Assembly (NCBI GenBank): GCA_964625865.1
Contig: CAZVEV010000001.1
Location: forward strand, 1-62,053
Length of the DNA: 62,053 nt
Direction of reading: 5' to 3'
Source of the DNA: an uncultured Planctomycetaceae bacterium
Lineage (GTDB): Bacteria > Planctomycetota > Phycisphaerae > SM23-33
The position numbers and the translations under genes are program-made. Shown one piece after another: positions 19,209 to 45,396 of this stretch (its first letter is position 1; every line of letters begins with the position of its first letter). The notes under the pieces were generated by a model. That model did no database searches. It saw only the letters and a program-made list of their open reading frames with translations, and was not told where the DNA came from.

Positions 19209-22200
19209 CTACTTCGCACCGCCCATGCACGTGACCTTGCCGTCGGTCGTTACGATGTAGATCCGCCCGGCGGCGGCGATCAGTCCGTCGAACACCGGCG
19301 GGGCGGTGAGTTTCATCTCGGACACCATCTTACCGTCGCCGGCCGCGTGGACGCGCAGCACGGCGCCCTTGCGCCCCTCGAAGGCGCCCATCGGATCTTT
19401 CGGGTCCAGGACGTCCGGCGGGCCGGCGATCACCAGGTGCTTGCCCGCCAGCGTCATCGCGCGAATGCGGACCGGGACCCACTTGAACCACGCCGGCGGG
19501 GCCTTCCGCGTAAAGCCGATGCCCTTGGGCACGCCTCGCGTGTAGTCCGGAAGCACCGGGTCGTTGTCATTGGCGTCGGCGAACAGGAGGTAGCCTTCCT
19601 TGCCCGGCGTGAACAGGGGGCTCTGCAGGTTCCTGTACGGGAAGGCCTGCACGGCGTACGTCCTGTCCGGACCGACGACGAGCAGTTGTCCCGTCTTGGC
19701 GCCGTAGTTGGCGATGTGGAAACCGGGCCAGGTTGGCGAGTACATCCAGAACGTCCTGTTGTACCACGAGTCGTCGAGGAACCCGCCGGTGGCGAAGATG
19801 TGGCGGCCCATCGTCCGCTCGCCCATACTGCTTGCGCCATACTTCTTCTTGTGCTCCGCCGTCATCTTCGGCCACACGCGAGCCTGCCAGTTCCTCTGGA
19901 CCACCTCGTCCTTCTTCTGTGTCTGCACCCTCAACGCATAGGGCTTGTCCAGCAGGTCCTCCATGCCCATCGCGTCGGGATTCTTTTCATCCTTGAGCAG
20001 CGGGTAGGGGACGTCTTCCTGCTTCAGGGCCAGGTCGAGTTGATACTGACCCAGGTAGATCTTCCCGCCTTCGCTTACCAGCACGTCCGACGTGGCGCCC
20101 TCGATGTGATAGCTCGGGATGAACGGCTTGTCCTTGGCGTCCTGGCGCGTGTGGGCCCACGTGTCCAGGCGCGTCTGGGCCACGATCTTGCCCGTGGCCG
20201 GATCGAGTGCAAAGACGTAGATCCCGCCGTCGAGGAACGTCGATCGCCCGGCCGTGCAGTAGGCCACGCCCTCAGTCACAAGAACGCTGCCGTGCACGCG
20301 CCAGGGCGATTCCAACTGGCCGAACGCGACGATTCGCCGTTCCCGCGGCGCCGCGCGGAACCGCCACGCCAGCGCGCCGTCGGCGGCACGGAGGCAGTAA
20401 ACGTATCCGTCCGCACTGCCGAACAGGACGCGCCCGCCGTCGATGGTCGGGGGCGAGTCGATCCGCCCGCCTGCCGTGAACTGCCACACCCCCTTGCCGC
20501 TTCGCACATCCAACGCATACAGCGTGTGGGCGTCCCTGGCGGCCACGTACACCCGCCCCCCGGCGGCTACCGGAGGCGTGAGGCGACCCTTGAGTTCCAC
20601 CGTCCACTGTGCGGCCAACTTGGCCGGCACCTCGCACGTCGCCGCGCCGCTGCGCCGAGCGTCCCGGCGGTACGTGGGCCAATCCGATTTCGGATTTCGG
20701 ATTTCGGATTTCGGATTCTTCGCTCCGTACGCGGGTCCCTTTTCGAGGCGCGAGACCTTCGACCTTTGACCTTCGACCTTCGACGGGTCCTTCCCTGTCA
20801 GCGCCTGGAAGCCGGTCAGCTTCACGCCGGGGTAGCAGAAGCACGGGTCCGGCGGGACGTAGAGCAGGCCGTTGCCCGGCATCACGCCGTACTTGCAGGC
20901 CCCGCGCGTCCAGTCGTGCTGGGAGTTCTTCTGGCCGGTCAGGCTCACGAACTCCACGCCGCGACACGGCGTGATGACGTACTTCTCGGTGGCCTTGCTC
21001 TGGTAGCACCGCGGGTGGTGGCCCGGGGTGAACACGTCGGCGGCGCTGACCTTCTCGCCCGCCTTGCCGGTGGCCAGGTCGATGCTCGCCATCCCACTGC
21101 CGCTTCGCTGCCAGATCTTGCCCTGTGCGACGAACGGCTCGGCGCCGAGCCTGCCCTTGGCCGTCCACAGCGTCTTGCCCGTCTTGACGTCCACCGCCGT
21201 CATCCCTCCGGGGCCGTTGAACAGCACGCGGTCGCCGCAGGCCAGCACGAGCCCCGCCGGTGCGCCCCGCCGCCTCTTGGGCTTCTTCGCGCCGGGCTTC
21301 CTGGGCGCCGGCTCGGGCTTCTTGACCGGAGCCGGGGCCGCGGTCTTCCACAATTCCTTGCCCGTCTTGAGGTCGAGGCACGTGACGGCCTGCCCGGCCT
21401 GGTAGAAGGCCCTGCCGTCCTGGGCCGCCAACGACAGGGCGTTGAGGGCGGCGGTCTTGACCCAGAGTTTGCGGGCGGTCTTGGCGTCAAAGGCCATCAC
21501 CACGTTGGCGCCTTTGCGGACCAGGACCACGCCGTCGCAGCAGCGAAGTTCCTGGGCCCCGTCGGAGCCCTCGCAGGTGGCGAGCACCTTGCCCGTCGCC
21601 GCGTCGAGAATCGACACCGGCGCGGTGTAGCCCAGCGTGACCATCAGGCGGTCGCCTTCGGCCACGATGCGCCGCGGAACCGTCGGCGGGATGCTCCGCA
21701 GGGCCTTGCTTCGCCACTGGCTGGTGCCCCACTGCTTGAGCGGGCGCTCCCACAGGAGCACGCCGTTAAACGCGTCCCGCGCGGTCAGCACCCATCGCTC
21801 GGGCAGGGGCCCGTCGGTGATGCCGGTCTTGCCCTGGTCGGCGATGTAGAACACGCGCCCGCCGGCGGAGATCATGGCGACGAGGCTGGAGTTGAACTCG
21901 TGGCTGCGCGACCACAGGGGCCCGCAGGTCCACCGCAGTCCGCGCGGCGGGGCGATCCGCGTGTCGGACGCCACCGCGTTGTTCGACGCGTCGTGGAGGA
22001 AGTGCGACCAGTCGTCAATGTCGCCCGGGTGCGGCTTGACGGTCTTGACGCCGCCGATGTACGCTGCGCCCTCCGGCGCCAGGACGCGCATGACCTCGGC
22101 CATCGGCACCGCGCCGAGGTCGTCGGCCACCAGGAGATTGACCAGGTCGTCGGCGTACGGCAGGGCCTTGCCCGCCAACCGGTCAACCGACACCTTGCCG

Positions 22201-39393: not shown

Positions 39394-40080
<687 letters not shown>

Positions 40081-40114
40081 CGGACCGCCACCGTTTGACA
40101 GATCAACTGTTCTC

Positions 40115-40150
40115 GGCGGGCCCGCCTCAGGCGGGCCCGCTGTTTTTCTT
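40115..40150 (+). terminator. intrinsic terminator after pseudopilin copy 1
   Basis: GGCGGGCCCGCC tca GGCGGGCCCGCT GC-rich hairpin followed by TGTTTTTCTT. Confidence 0.6.
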
Positions 40151-40164
40151 ACACAGAATGGGGG

Positions 40165-40193
40165 TTGACAGTTCCGGGCTTTCAACCTATAAT
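40165..40193 (+). promoter_or_regulatory. sigma70-type promoter for pseudopilin copy 2
   Basis: TTGACA (40165-40170), 17-nt spacer, TATAAT (40188-40193). Perfect consensus, about 60 nt upstream of ATG 40257 and just after the copy-1 terminator. Confidence 0.55.
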
Positions 40194-40256
40194 CTCAATA
40201 GAGTTAGATAAGCGCTGAAGGAGGCGCAAGGAACCAACCTGAGTGGAGGAAGCACG

Positions 40257-40946
40257 ATGCAATCCAAGAGGGCATTCACACTTATCGAACTGCTGGTGGT
40301 TATTGCCATTATCGCGCTGCTGGTCTCGATCCTGGCGCCGAGTTTGACCAGGATCATGGATGGCGCCAAGCACACCAAGTGCAAGGCGAATCTCGACTCG
40401 CTTCGCAAGTCGATGATGGGCTACGGCGCAGAGAACAACGGCGACTACCCCAGTGAGGCCCTCACGGGCCAGACCGGACAGGCCGAAGTCCTGATGGTCT
40501 TCGCCTATGAACAGGGCGTCAGCGGCGATCTGTTCGTCTGCCCAGCCGTCACGCCGACGGCGACCAGTGACAATCCGATTGACCCGCAGCCGGCTCCGAC
40601 TACGGGCACGGTAACGGCAACTGCTGGTGAAGAAGGCAGTTACTCCTACCAGGACGCCAACGACACTGACAGAGTGATCACCGACGAGAGCAAGAATGAC
40701 GTGGTGTTCCTGGCCGACAGGAAGGGCTCGGGTACGACCGTCAGCACGAGTCACAACGAGGGCGAGTTCATGTTCTACGCGACCAAGAGCGGAGTGTACA
40801 GGTCGCCGGGATGGGGTACCGCCGGTACGCCGGATCCGGCAACGTTCGGGCGCCTGAAGAACAACATCTACACTTCCGAGGACAGCATGGCCGCCGACCC
40901 GAACTGGCTTCCGCGTGACGACAGTTATCTGCTGCAGGTCGATTGA
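40257..40946 (+). CDS. prepilin-type N-terminal cleavage/methylation domain protein (pseudopilin-like), copy 2
   Basis: GGAGGA SD. MQSKRA|[24 protein letters not shown], with Ala rather than Gly at -1. Nearly identical to copy 1 along the whole length, with scattered substitutions. Confidence 0.85.
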   Translation: MQSKRAFTLIELLVVIAIIALLVSILAPSLTRIMDGAKHTKCKANLDSLRKSMMGYGAENNGDYPSEALTGQTGQAEVLMVFAYEQGVSGDLFVCPAVTPTATSDNPIDPQPAPTTGTVTATAGEEGSYSYQDANDTDRVITDESKNDVVFLADRKGSGTTVSTSHNEGEFMFYATKSGVYRSPGWGTAGTPDPATFGRLKNNIYTSEDSMAADPNWLPRDDSYLLQVD

Positions 40947-41015: not shown

Positions 41016-41183
41016 GGGGCACGGGATTCGAGGACCGAAGGAGGGCAGGGGCTGCCCGGGTCGTGCCATCATCTGAGGGGGGCCGTTTTCCGCGTGGTCA
41101 ACCGGTCGGGGGGAAGGTATAATCGGGGCAGGAAAGGGCAGGTGTCCGCGCTGAGCGGATGCGGACTGAAACGAGGGACGGTT

Positions 41184-42149
41184 GTGGAACTGAGCATAGC
41201 AGTTGAGAATCCCGGCAAGGCTGCCGCGCTGTACGGCCCGGCGGACCGGCACTTGAAGCTGATCCGCGAAGCGCTCGGCGTACAGGTCTTTGCGCGGAGC
41301 GGCGAGATCAGGGTCACCGGTTCGGCCAAGAACGTCACGCACGCCGCGGCGGTCATCGAGCGGCTCCAGCGTGCGATTCGTCACGATCAGCCGGTCAGTG
41401 TAGCCAGCGTCGCCGAGGCGATCGGGACCGCTGCCGGTGGGGGCCCCGGGCGAGACTCGGGCGTGCTGGACGTCTATGTTGCCGGCCAGGTCGTCCGGGC
41501 CAAGACCCCCGGGCAGAAGCGCTACATCGAGGCGATGCGTCGGTGCGACCTGGTGTTCTGCACGGGCCCGGCCGGCACGGGCAAGACGTACCTGGCGGTC
41601 GCCTTTGCGGTCCACATGCTCAAGCACAAGCAGGCCAAGCGGTTAATTCTCGTCCGTCCGGCCGTGGAGGCCGGCGAGAAGTTGGGCTTTCTCCCGGGCG
41701 ACATGCAGGCGAAGGTCAACCCGTACCTCCGCCCGTTGTTCGACGCGCTGCACGACATGATGGAGTACGAGCAGATACGGCGCTTCATGACCAACGACCT
41801 GATCGAGGTGATTCCGCTGGCGTTCATGCGCGGGCGAACGCTGAACGAGTCGGTGGTCATCCTTGACGAGGCCCAGAACACCACGACGGCCCAGATGCTG
41901 ATGTTCTTGACGCGGATGGGGCACGGCTCGAAAATGATCGTCACCGGTGATGACAGCCAGGTCGACCTGCCGGACGGCACGGTCAGCGGCCTGTCCGACG
42001 CCAAGCGGCGGCTGGCCGGCATCAAGGGCCTGAGCGTGGTCCGACTGGCCGCCGGCGACATCGTGCGCCACCGCCTGGTGCAGAACATCGTTGCCGCGTA
42101 CGATCCGTCGGCCCCGTCGGCTGGGCCGACGGGAAATACGAAATCCTAA
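41184..42149 (+). CDS. phoH: PhoH-family ATPase (YbeZ-like)
   Basis: GTG 41184 with GAGGGA upstream; the track start 41094 adds an R/G-rich extension. Walker A CTGPAGTGKTYLAV, LILVRPAVEAGEKLGFLPGD, VILDEAQNTT and KMIVTGDDSQVDLP. Confidence 0.85.
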   Translation: MELSIAVENPGKAAALYGPADRHLKLIREALGVQVFARSGEIRVTGSAKNVTHAAAVIERLQRAIRHDQPVSVASVAEAIGTAAGGGPGRDSGVLDVYVAGQVVRAKTPGQKRYIEAMRRCDLVFCTGPAGTGKTYLAVAFAVHMLKHKQAKRLILVRPAVEAGEKLGFLPGDMQAKVNPYLRPLFDALHDMMEYEQIRRFMTNDLIEVIPLAFMRGRTLNESVVILDEAQNTTTAQMLMFLTRMGHGSKMIVTGDDSQVDLPDGTVSGLSDAKRRLAGIKGLSVVRLAAGDIVRHRLVQNIVAAYDPSAPSAGPTGNTKS

Positions 42150-42442
42150 GTTCGAAATACTAAACAAATCCGAATACGGAAACAGAAAATGTCCGAAACA
42201 AGGATAGATGCGTCGCATGCCTCACCTGTGGACGGTGGGGCTTCGCGCAGAGTCTACGATCTGGAGGATAGGACGTTCGGATTTCATTCCGGTGCAACGG
42301 ACAGTCAGATGAGCCACACCGATACAGGGAAAGCCCCCCGACTGCGTCGGGGGGATCCCCGCGACACAGTCACGGGGCGTGTGGTATTGTCTGTTTCCGT
42401 ATTCGGATGTGTTTAGTATTTCGAGACTAGGATTTCGGATTT
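42134..42442. mobile_element. MITE-like element (~309 bp) with ~52-bp terminal inverted repeats, between phoH and the 7TM-HD gene
   Basis: The left arm 42134-42185 and the reverse complement of 42391-42442 agree at 47 of 52 positions by my alignment. The interior carries a family 4 unit. The left arm supplies the last codons and the TAA (42147-42149) of phoH. The right arm ends 6 nt before ATG 42449. No transposase is present. Confidence 0.65.
42330..42365. repeat. repeat family 4, copy 1 (CCCCCCGAC.GCGTCGGGGGGATCCCCGCGAC)
   Basis: AAAGCCCCCCGACTGCGTCGGGGGGATCCCCGCGAC. 9-bp G/C stem. Confidence 0.8.
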
Positions 42443-42448
42443 AACCTG

Positions 42449-44956
42449 ATGTGGCCGTTCAAGAAAAAAGTCGGTCGTCGTCGCCGTGAAGTGCGGCGGA
42501 ACATGCCCCCCAGCGGGCCGGGGCTGTGGCAGCGGATCTGCCACGCCGGAGGCGGCTGGGGGGTCGTGCTGGCCCTTGCACTGTGGGCCGGGGCGGTGGC
42601 GATGGACGCCTGGCCGATCGATCCCCTGCCGTACCGCGCGGGGCAGTTCGTCCCGCAGGACATCCGATCGCGCGTCACGTTCGGCGTCTATGCTCGACAG
42701 AGACACCAGGAACAGCGGCGAAAGGCGCTGGCCGAGGTGCCGAGGCACTATCGCCTGAACGAGGACCTGGCCAAGCGCGTTGCCGACGCGCTGGCGACCT
42801 TGCCGTCTCGCTGCAAGGCCCTGGCCGCCCCCGGCGATGCGGACAAGATCCTCAAGGCCCAACTGGGCCTGACCGACGCCAACGCCGCGGACGTGTTGGC
42901 GGCCTGGCGGGCCTACGCCGAGGGCGACAAACGCACGCAACTGGACGGCCTGATCGACACGCTCGGGCGCGACCTGGCCGATACGTTCACCTACGGGCAA
43001 GCGGACAGCGCCACTGACGTCCAGCCCGTTGTCGGCAGGAAGGTCGTGCTCGTTTCATCGAACGCCAAGGACACCCGCGCCGTCGACGCACGCTGGATGG
43101 TGAGCCTTTCCGAGGACGCCAGGCAGGTCGTTGAGCGTGTCGACGTCCTGGCCGGGGCGTTCCCCGCTGAGATCAAGCCCGGAGTGGCCACCTGCCTCAA
43201 GGGCCTGCTTACGCGGGAGGCGATGTACGTCTACGACGACAGGGCCACCGAAGACGCACGCCGCGCCAAGGACGAGGAGGTCCGAGCGGAAAGGCCTTAC
43301 GATACCTACGCCGCCGGCGACCTGCTGGTCCAGGCCAGTTGGCGCCGACCGGCCGGGCACCGCCCGGGGCTGACCGACGAGGAACTGGCCCTGCTCCAGA
43401 AGGAGCACGAGGCCTTCGCCGGCGGGGTCGGGCGCGACGATCGCCAGTACGCCGGGTCCGAGCGACTGTGGTTCCTCGCCCAACGCCTCGCCGGACGCGC
43501 CTGCACGCTGGGCTTTGTCGTACTCCTGCTGTGTTTCTACGTCTGCTTCTACGAGAGACGCATCGCGCGGAACCCGTGGCGCAGCGTGGCCATCGCCGCC
43601 ACCCTCCTGCTCATGCTCGCCGCCAACAAGCTCCTGGTCACCATCGACTGGGCCAATCCGTACGTCTGCGTCCTGCCCCTGCTCATTGCCACCGTCATCA
43701 TGACCATCGCCTACAACCAGCGCTTCGCGTTGGGGCTCGGCGCGATCATGGCCGTCATGGTGGTCCTGCAACTGCGACAGGGCATCGGCATGTTCGTGGT
43801 GGTGATGGTGCCCGTAACCGCCACCGTGCTCCAGCTCAACGAGATCCGCACGCGGAACAAGCTCATCGGTGCCCTGTCGGTCTCGGCTGTCCTGGTGTTC
43901 CTGGCCACGTGGGGCCTGGGCCTGTTTGCCGCCGCGGGCGAGGAGTTCATCCTCTCCGACAGCCTGTGGGCGGCGGTCTCGACGATACTGGCCGGCCTGG
44001 TCGCCCAGGCCATCCTGCCGGTCATCGAACGCGTCTTCAGGATCGCCACCTCCATGACCCTGCTGGAATGGTGCGATGCGAGCAGGCCCCTGATGCGACG
44101 ATTGGCCATGGAAAGCCCGGGCACGCACAACCACTCGCTTCAGCTCGGTTCGATGTGCGAGGCTGCCGCCGAGGCCATCGGCGCCCGCGGCCTGCTTGCC
44201 CGCGTGGGGGCGTACTACCACGACATCGGCAAGATCAACAAGCCGGAGTACTTCTCCGAAAACGAGTCCGGGTCGGCCTCCAAGCACGCCAAGCTCTCGC
44301 CCGCGATGAGCCTGCTGATCATCATCGGGCACGTCAAGGACGGCGTGGAACTTGCCCGCGAGTACGCCCTGCCGCCCGTGCTCCACGAGTTTATCGCCAC
44401 CCACCACGGCACGACGCTGGTGCAGTACTTCTACCACGTCGCCGCCGAGCAGCGCAAGAGCGATTCGGACCGCGCTCCGGACGAGGTCGAGTTCCGGTAT
44501 CCCGGTCCGAAGCCGAAGTCCAAGGAGGCCGGCATCCTCATGCTCGCCGATGCCGCCGAATCCTCCGTCCGCGCCATGACCGAGCCCACGCCCGGACGTA
44601 TCGAAAACCAGGTCCACGCCATGGTCTCCCGTCGCCTCATGGACGGGCAGCTCGACGACTGCGAGTTGACCCTTCGCGAGGTCCACCAGATCGAGACCTC
44701 GCTCATCAAGAGCCTCTGCGGCGTGTATCACTCGCGGATCGCCTACCCCACGCCGGCCGGCGAGAAGCCGTCCGCCGCCGAGACCCCTCCTCCTGACCGC
44801 GGCAACGGCCGGAACGGGGATGACAAGGCCAACGGCATCAAGGCCCACGAGGTCGAGCCGTCCGCGGCGGACGATCAGACCGAAGCTGACGCGACTGATG
44901 TTGTTGAAGAGACTGCCCCCGTCGCGGCCGACCAGACGGGGCCCGCTGCCTCATGA
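42449..44956 (+). CDS. 7TM-receptor / HDIG-domain phosphohydrolase (PgpH/YqfF-like)
   Basis: 835 aa. Extracellular N-terminal part, a 7-TM block (FVVLLLCFYVCFY...LAGLVAQAILPVI) and HD domain HSLQLGSMCEAAAEAIG..AYYHDIGK. Canonical position between phoH and ybeY. Confidence 0.8.
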   Translation: MWPFKKKVGRRRREVRRNMPPSGPGLWQRICHAGGGWGVVLALALWAGAVAMDAWPIDPLPYRAGQFVPQDIRSRVTFGVYARQRHQEQRRKALAEVPRHYRLNEDLAKRVADALATLPSRCKALAAPGDADKILKAQLGLTDANAADVLAAWRAYAEGDKRTQLDGLIDTLGRDLADTFTYGQADSATDVQPVVGRKVVLVSSNAKDTRAVDARWMVSLSEDARQVVERVDVLAGAFPAEIKPGVATCLKGLLTREAMYVYDDRATEDARRAKDEEVRAERPYDTYAAGDLLVQASWRRPAGHRPGLTDEELALLQKEHEAFAGGVGRDDRQYAGSERLWFLAQRLAGRACTLGFVVLLLCFYVCFYERRIARNPWRSVAIAATLLLMLAANKLLVTIDWANPYVCVLPLLIATVIMTIAYNQRFALGLGAIMAVMVVLQLRQGIGMFVVVMVPVTATVLQLNEIRTRNKLIGALSVSAVLVFLATWGLGLFAAAGEEFILSDSLWAAVSTILAGLVAQAILPVIERVFRIATSMTLLEWCDASRPLMRRLAMESPGTHNHSLQLGSMCEAAAEAIGARGLLARVGAYYHDIGKINKPEYFSENESGSASKHAKLSPAMSLLIIIGHVKDGVELAREYALPPVLHEFIATHHGTTLVQYFYHVAAEQRKSDSDRAPDEVEFRYPGPKPKSKEAGILMLADAAESSVRAMTEPTPGRIENQVHAMVSRRLMDGQLDDCELTLREVHQIETSLIKSLCGVYHSRIAYPTPAGEKPSAAETPPPDRGNGRNGDDKANGIKAHEVEPSAADDQTEADATDVVEETAPVAADQTGPAAS

Positions 44957-45396
44957 CCGCCGACCCCACCGTGAAGATCTGTTCGTCGCAGAAGACCCTC
45001 CGCGTGCCGCGCCGGAAGATCGTCCGTCTGGTGGCGTTCGTGGCACAAAGCGAAGGAGCGCCGCTGCTCGACGTGGATATCGCCGTCGTCGGCGCCGAGG
45101 AGATGGCCCAACTCAACGAGCGGTATCACGGATACGTCGGGCCCACCGACGTGCTCAGTTTCGACCTGTCAGGTCCCCGGGACGCGGGCATCAGTGCCGA
45201 GATCATCGTCTGCGCCGACGTAGCGGTTGCCGAGGCCGCCAAACGCGGCGGGCGACCCCAGAACGAACTGCTGCTCTACATCGTTCACGGCCTGCTCCAC
45301 CTGATGGGCTACGACGACCCCGCCCGCACGGCCGAGGCCGAGTGGATGCACGTCCGCGAGACGGAACTGCTCAACGCTTTCAGATCCCTACGATGA
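44953..45396 (+). CDS. ybeY: rRNA maturation endoribonuclease YbeY
   Basis: IVHGLLHLMGYDD zinc motif. ATGA start/stop overlap with the upstream gene (44953-44956). Confidence 0.9.
   Translation: MTADPTVKICSSQKTLRVPRRKIVRLVAFVAQSEGAPLLDVDIAVVGAEEMAQLNERYHGYVGPTDVLSFDLSGPRDAGISAEIIVCADVAVAEAAKRGGRPQNELLLYIVHGLLHLMGYDDPARTAEAEWMHVRETELLNAFRSLR

Follow-up and report, generated by a model that had tools for sequence, protein, structure and literature searches.

A gene-less inverted-repeat element at a planctomycete phoH/7TM-HD junction, probably the relic of a four-helix-bundle gene cassette

What occupies the space between phoH and the next gene of its operon in an uncultured Planctomycetaceae bacterium, and how did it come to be there? 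The window analysed here is the whole of a 62,053-nucleotide (nt) stretch of contig CAZVEV010000001.1 (assembly GCA_964625865.1). It belongs to a metagenome-assembled genome, G000 (6.46 Mb in 559 contigs, 86% complete). From the phoH stop to the start of a gene encoding a seven-transmembrane receptor with an HD hydrolase domain (7TM-HD) there is a gap of 299 nt, almost all of it occupied by two inverted arms. A sequence-only reading of the window had described an insertion resembling a miniature inverted-repeat transposable element (MITE). An inverted-repeat element is indeed present and fills the gap (42134-42442, 309 nt). We conclude, with high though not complete confidence, that it is the decayed remnant of an intervening sequence (IVS)-type cassette, in which a gene of the PF05635/TIGR02436 four-helix-bundle family lies between inverted arrays of repeats of about 7 nt. 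The features of the locus are:

41184-42149, plus strand: phoH, encoding a PhoH-like ATPase of 321 amino acids (aa), with a GTG start at 41184 (Pfam PF02562, E 1.6e-89).
42134-42190, plus strand: left arm of the element, a degenerate array of 7-nt units (AAATACG AAATCCT AAGTTCG AAATACT AAACAAA TCCGAAT ACGGAAA...).
42189-42416, plus strand: stub open reading frame (ORF) of 75 aa (MSET...RRVYDLEDRTF...), with no conserved homologues.
42234-42284, plus strand: putative N-terminal remnant of a PF05635/TIGR02436 four-helix-bundle gene, 17 residues, GGASRRVYDLEDRTFGF (tblastn and subfamily hidden Markov model, HMM).
42330-42379, no strand assigned: double-hairpin unit resembling a repetitive extragenic palindrome (REP), nested in the loop and found at 35 loci in the genome.
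42386-42442, plus strand: right arm, an inverted copy of the left arm (inverted-repeat search).
42449-44956, plus strand: 7TM receptor with HD hydrolase domain (PgpH-like), 835 aa (Pfam PF07698, PF01966, PF07697).
44953-45396, plus strand: ybeY endoribonuclease gene (Pfam PF02130, E 2.9e-24), overlapping the 7TM-HD stop by 4 nt.

The arms identified by the inverted-repeat search are 57 nt each, 89% complementary and separated by 195 nt; an alignment with two 1-nt gaps matches about 52 of 58 positions. The inverted termini proposed earlier are therefore real, but longer than the 52 bp or so (47 of 52 matches) given for them. A 36-nt arm pattern (at most 3 mismatches) has only two sites in the window, and none of 100 shuffles gave any match. 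The phoH stop codon (TAA, 42147-42149) lies inside the left arm, which encodes N-T-K-S-stop and one base of a Gly codon; the donated stop codon stands, whereas the six codons credited to the left terminus come down to four and the stop. The 7TM-HD start (MWPFKKK, 42449), which is kept in relatives, is found 6 nt beyond the end of the right arm. The element is bordered by ...GCCGACGGG on the left and AACCTGATG on the right, and the sequence flanking these borders contains no direct repeat that would mark a target-site duplication. The spacer is richer in A+T than its surroundings, as had been noted (G+C 0.52 compared with 0.64 for the locus). The inner palindrome, first delimited as 42330-42365 and assigned to a repeat family, extends to the full REP-like unit (about 50 nt, G+C-rich, with the pattern AAAGCCCCCCGAC...GTCGGGGGGATCCCC..GAC...GTC..GGGGC). 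This unit is multi-copy and dispersed in the genome, and is the only part of the element that recurs there.

A fragmented metagenome-assembled genome could produce such a structure as an assembly artefact, by a chimeric join or by collapse of a repeat at the hairpin. The element is, however, base-for-base identical (100%) in two independently assembled metagenome contigs, and a diverged homologous copy exists in the closest relative (L151, see below), so that the probability of an artefact is negligible. The same species was found in other samples by exact look-up of the YbeY protein, and the element is identical there, without polymorphism.

The first line of evidence for a decayed cassette comes from the loop. 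The remnant GGASRRVYDLEDRTFGF is identical at 11 of 17 residues to the start of the protein encoded by an intact cassette in a related genome, G081 (GGVRKRPYDLEDRTLAF; tblastn, E 4e-6), and the remnant and the G081 gene start agree in strand and in side with respect to the arms. With the subfamily HMM, the real frame of the element scores 8.7 bits and the best of 1800 shuffled frames (300 shuffles) 6.9. When 79 four-helix-bundle proteins were compared by tblastn with 25 long phoH/7TM-HD spacers, a gene remnant was detected only in this element. The stub ORF opens at the inner end of the left arm and ends within the right arm. It has no Pfam or NCBIfam match at E values up to 10, and a search of 92 genomes from its taxonomic family gave no significant homologue; a weak match in G081 (E 0.15) leads to the intact relative cassette. 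The phoH frame also continues in frame into the stub ORF, with the TAA at 42147-42149 as the sole separation (42147-42191); this continuity is probably due to chance.

The second line of evidence comes from the arms. The left arm matches the arms at 18 of 30 loci of one four-helix-bundle subfamily, named here YDLEDRT after a motif (best E 4e-12, 81% over 59 nt), while the same comparison with two other subfamilies as a control gave 0 of 29 and 2 of 29 loci, the latter weak. YDLEDRT arms are of the CGAAATC/AAACAAAT type. Those of the intact G081 cassette (locus L079/L231) read AAATCCGAAGCCCGAAACCCGAAATCCGAG... and ...TTTCGGATTTCGAGTTTCGTATTTCGGATTT, and are of the same type as in the window element. 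Both arms show a 7-nt periodicity: at lag 7 the fraction of matches is 0.54 (left) and 0.46 (right), and at lag 14 it is 0.49 (left) and 0.42 (right). On wider 75-nt stretches (left 42131-42205; lag-7 matches 0.46 left and 0.43 right), shuffling gives a lag-7 p of about 0.003, which becomes about 0.03 when corrected for the ten lags tried. Elsewhere in the window there is a tandem (CGGATTT)x5 at 20683-20722, whose unit is that of the right arm, and, about 35 nt past it, (CGACCTT)x4 at 20756-20786; both arrays are inside long ORFs of both strands.

Intact counterparts show what such a cassette looks like before decay. PF05635 genes occur in 83 of the 92 family genomes, and arms of at least 18 nt flank 27 of the 33 examined in these genomes, the best lag being almost always 7. 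G000 itself contains three intact PF05635 genes, each between inverted arms of at least 26 nt composed of 7-nt units, which differ in every case (GGCAATA on contig C4, GGTGAGA on C239 and TAGATTT on C19). A fourth, sub-threshold match (C260) has arms of only 17 nt with GTGGAC-type units and a period of about 9 nt. A scan of the whole genome for inverted repeats whose arms reach 24 nt or more identified 432, of which 87 have an arm period of 6-9 nt. Seven periodic-arm hairpins have loops of 414-842 nt, and three of these hold four-helix-bundle genes (loops of 414-651 nt). Another has arms of CGCAGATTT 9-mers and encloses a GxxExxY gene (TIGR04256, E 4e-39), which makes this a second cargo family in a repeat-armed hairpin; it is located at G000:C55:14705-15248 between genes for a class-V aminotransferase and a 2-hydroxyacid dehydrogenase. 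Gene-less hairpins with the same 9-mer arms are present on C118, C181, C21, C237, C10 and C96.

Across 99 genomes of the order we count about 32 intact members of the YDLEDRT subfamily; where the subfamily occurs it is usually as a single member, and G000 has none. The arm-to-arm span of the intact cassettes is 454-626 nt compared with 309 nt in the window element, from which it follows that about 300 nt of gene are missing. Intact cassettes point in the same direction as their neighbours, and are placed between the stop codon of the upstream gene and the start codon of the downstream gene. In G000 such sites are found between the genes for V-type ATPase subunits B and D and between Y-family polymerase and DnaE2-like genes. 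YDLEDRT cassettes follow etfA (8 genera), RnfC-like genes (2), E2 acyltransferase genes (3-4), pgk and lysS, and none is at phoH. In at least five intact cassettes (including those after EtfA, RnfC-like and E2 genes) the upstream protein terminates inside the left arm, one EtfA ending in ...IRKTKSEIRNNKQ-stop. The arm-supplied stop codon of phoH is thus a recurrent by-product of cassette design.

Directly after etfA, the YDLEDRT cassette is present with its gene intact in L235, L236, L238, L239, L241, L243, L244 and L248, and its occurrence at this site in eight genera suggests long vertical retention. One YDLEDRT-subfamily cassette gene (G023:C7:2747-3091) carries an in-frame TAG. No target-site duplication was seen at the intact relatives, and elements with homologous arms contain no transposase, only the PF05635 gene.

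These observations bear directly on the MITE-like interpretation. A true MITE would derive from a DNA transposon, would not be autonomous and would depend for its movement on a transposase able to recognise its terminal inverted repeats. The element has the look of one, being small, non-coding, richer in A+T than its surroundings and bounded by long terminal inverted repeats, and it resides in a genome with several real multi-copy inverted-repeat families. However, when the whole element, each arm and the loop flanks were searched against the 6.46 Mb of the 86%-complete assembly, no further copy was returned (BLAST with E values to 10, blastn-short to 50). A lack of other terminus copies in the genome is what the sequence-only reading had itself named as counting against it, and the MITE part of that reading therefore fails. 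Together with the missing target-site duplication and with arms homologous to those of transposase-less four-helix-bundle cassettes, whose intact relatives carry that gene, this makes a true MITE extremely unlikely. A single copy in the genome is what is seen with the cassettes generally. At least five multi-copy inverted-repeat families of G000 (such as GCAGGCCCGAAGGGCCG.CCGATCTTAGCCGGGCCCGG and GGGTGCCGTGGGCTGCGGAGCGAAGCGGAGCAACCACG), whose arms measure 40-56 nt and whose loops measure about 100-120 nt, are better candidates for MITEs, or for REP doublets forming hairpins (REPINs), than the 309-nt element.

Is the element an insertion at all, or is it ancestral sequence? We compared 74 phoH/7TM-HD junctions, drawn from 30 genome loci and 80 metagenome loci. 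No inverted repeat is present in 64 of them, and many gaps are shorter than 60 nt. In the PhoH tree G000 and the metagenomic locus L151 are sisters (support 100/100), while the next sister, G012, is empty with a gap of 39 nt. Relative to most relatives the element is therefore an insertion, as had been supposed. The accompanying claim that it replaced the native C-terminus of PhoH was overstated: beyond ...IVxAY the protein has a tail of 0-45 residues that is unconserved in all relatives.

The closest relative, L151, whose PhoH is 88-90% identical, contains a homologous, shorter and further decayed element. It shares the phoH ending (...S-T-K-S-stop), the start of the left arm, the ATG context (16/16) and the remnant, as RRVHDLEDKTF; it is without a 126-nt segment that holds the REP-like unit together with the inner half of the right arm.

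Several other lineages have filled junctions. CGAAATC-type arms, matching those of the YDLEDRT cassette subfamily, are present in L154 (whose sisters L175 and L193 are empty) and, as a gene-less hairpin, in G023 (G023:C85, L039). Solo arrays of CGAAAT-like units are found in L169 and L186. In the clade L041/L177/L178/L180 the junction is filled by GCGACAA-type arms, which encode the last PhoH residues (...SDKRQE-stop) and match sequence adjacent to a G061 four-helix-bundle gene. The L180 version of this hairpin contains a large unrelated palindrome in its loop, comparable to the REP-like unit of the window element. The junction of G015 has a hairpin of GTAATTC units that matches none of the cassettes compared. 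Each filled lineage has sister lineages in which the junction is empty or arm-less.

This comparison also bears on the proposal that the hairpin is native to the operon and arose there as a regulatory signal (for attenuation, termination or processing). In its favour, the stem is highly stable, and some hairpin exists at the junction in several relatives. Against this, the great majority of junctions lack an inverted repeat, the copy in the sister L151 has lost its fold, and the hairpins of other lineages are built from unrelated arm units, one type of which (GCGACAA) matches sequence beside a cassette gene. A conserved, covarying junction structure was not seen across the family. Promoter and terminator scans found no promoter-like or terminator-like site within 42134-42442, and a search of the element against Rfam gave chance-level matches only, with no ribosomal RNA (rRNA) or other family. 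A native regulatory hairpin is, on this evidence, very unlikely. An intrinsic terminator, which would be a G+C-rich stem followed by a T run, was rejected on the same scan of 42134-42442.

Because the backbone of the PhoH tree is unresolved, the sequences are compatible both with one old insertion followed by many losses and with at least three separate insertions. We put forward tentatively, as a proposal that may or may not hold, that four-helix-bundle cassettes are a class of insertable element without a transposase that enters the stop/start junctions of operons, and that the phoH/7TM-HD junction records their repeated gain and decay across genera, the window relic being one stage.

For the window element we infer the following order of events. 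A cassette with CGAAATC/AAACAAAT-type arms and a YDLEDRT N-terminus would have entered the junction in the direction of the operon, after the split from the next sister and before that from the closest metagenomic relative. Its left arm would have overrun the 3' end of phoH and supplied the last four codons and the TAA. A deletion would then have taken the gene from about codon 33 onward, and the REP-like unit may have come into the loop at any time. As modelled, what is left is a non-coding segment of 309 nt whose arms can still pair over 57 bp.

In L151 the counterpart of the stub ORF (translated from the L151 sequence) is 43 aa long and diverges after residue 32 or so. Over 154 nt of left arm and stub, the window and L151 agree at 73% of positions, compared with 59% at 4-fold sites of phoH and 7TM-HD; the start context is fully kept, and the DLEDRTF region differs by three synonymous and two conservative changes in 11 codons. 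Judged from these sequences, the excess conservation could mean either that the gene stayed intact for some time after the split or that the stub is still translated. The latter would correspond to a domesticated relic, in which ribosomes translating the stub through the loop and into the right arm would unfold the stem and tie expression of 7TM-HD to that of the stub. In addition to the well-kept start context and DLEDRTF codons, it could draw on the position of the L151 stub ORF, which ends 5 nt ahead of the 7TM-HD start. The number of sites is, however, very small, the two ORFs are of unequal length (75 and 43 aa) and diverge beyond residue 32, no homologue is found elsewhere, and the same pattern would be expected of a gene that remained intact for some of the period after the split. 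We consider domestication unlikely.

The element may affect the operon at the RNA level. The strong hairpin anticipated in the operon transcript is borne out by structure prediction: RNA 42120-42455 folds with a 57-bp stem (free energy -160.9 kcal/mol, z -10.5). In Coxiella an IVS with a 28-bp stem and tandem heptamers is cut mid-stem in vitro by the RNase III of Coxiella and of Escherichia coli (PMC4990558), and an RNase III gene is present in G000. The present effect of the element is probably to place in the operon transcript a 57-bp RNA stem, which by analogy is a likely RNase III substrate. From the same analogy with rRNA IVSs we infer that a cut in the stem would separate phoH RNA from pgpH-ybeY RNA. 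The right arm would bury the region just upstream of the 7TM-HD start, and with it the initiation region, unless ribosomes finishing phoH melt the base of the stem; a ribosome stopping at 42147-42149 would open only its outer part. For the cell, the relic is probably of little consequence.

Several observations weigh against a decayed cassette, or against its having kept a function. The L151 hairpin folds no better than shuffled sequences (z -0.78), and this loss suggests that the stem is not under selection, contrary to a retained function. The periodicity of the arms is modest (the corrected p being that given above), and Tandem Repeats Finder detects no tandem array in them, the arrays being too degenerate. 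The remnant is only 17 residues long and is missed by both Pfam and NCBIfam, a silence to be expected at this length. Finally, no movement, enzyme or target duplication is known for the cassette class, so that the term 'insertion' relies on the comparison of filled and empty sites.

Other features of the locus concern the genes around the element. A longer phoH ORF opens at 41094, and a promoter-like site lies at 41095-41123 (promoter scan); the 321-aa gene call is also present in the metagenome contigs L145 and L146. Upstream of phoH there are two tandem, near-identical genes with prepilin-type N-methyl domains (228 and 229 aa, 39394-40946). The same-species contig L146 has a single copy of the prepilin-type gene and another upstream neighbour.

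How does the element compare with known systems? The PF05635/TIGR02436 four-helix-bundle family was first found inside 23S rRNA IVSs, and ORF-bearing IVSs of this kind were reportedly described in Leptospira by Ralph and McClelland in 1993. The window element resembles them in its long stem formed from terminal inverted repeats, in the tandem heptamers of its arms, in its decaying ORF and in a cargo that is probably of the same protein family (PF05635, 'S23p'). It differs in lying in a protein operon and not in helix 25 or 45 of 23S rRNA, in having a gene cut to a 17-residue stub, and in an arm that supplies the stop codon of a host gene. Its arms are also longer than those of the IVS of Coxiella burnetii (57 bp compared with 28 bp; Warrier et al. 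2016, PMC4990558), for which RNase III cleavage is known and not, as here, predicted.

The closest likeness in form is to the heptamer-armed cassettes at operon junctions described above: inverted 7-nt arrays, co-directional orientation, a stop-to-start site, a single copy and an arm type that goes with the protein subfamily. The window copy differs in having lost its gene by deletion and in its nested REP-like unit. Our literature search found no published description of four-helix-bundle cassettes in protein operons. With MITEs the element shares its short length, A+T content, lack of coding capacity and inverted-repeat boundaries, but it is single-copy, without a target duplication and without a transposase-bearing parent. 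The likeness to REP and REPIN sequences is limited to the nested palindrome, a multi-copy double hairpin of about 50 nt that is G+C-rich. Intergenic heptanucleotide arrays of the GGGNATC type, which form G-quadruplexes and have no attached gene family, have been described in Xanthomonas and Nostoc (Rehm et al. 2015, PMC4692102). They too consist of 7-nt units, mostly between co-directional genes and near stop or start codons. The window arrays, in contrast, are A-rich on the coding strand (T-rich in the inverted arm), form paired inverted arms and are tied to a lineage of four-helix-bundle genes. Set beside these systems, the window element is a gene-less relic of an IVS-like cassette at a new site, accompanied by a series of filled and empty sites.

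This corrects a trap in annotation, since a long inverted repeat in a conserved operon resembles a MITE and yet is what remains of an IVS-like gene cassette. It also shows that such cassettes rewrite the 3' end of the gene upstream, here with the PhoH stop and in relatives likewise with EtfA, RnfC-like and E2 genes. The series of filled, decayed and empty states of a single orthologous junction in several genera provides evidence of a kind that was previously scarce, and bears on whether these cassettes, and by extension the rRNA IVSs, are or were mobile.

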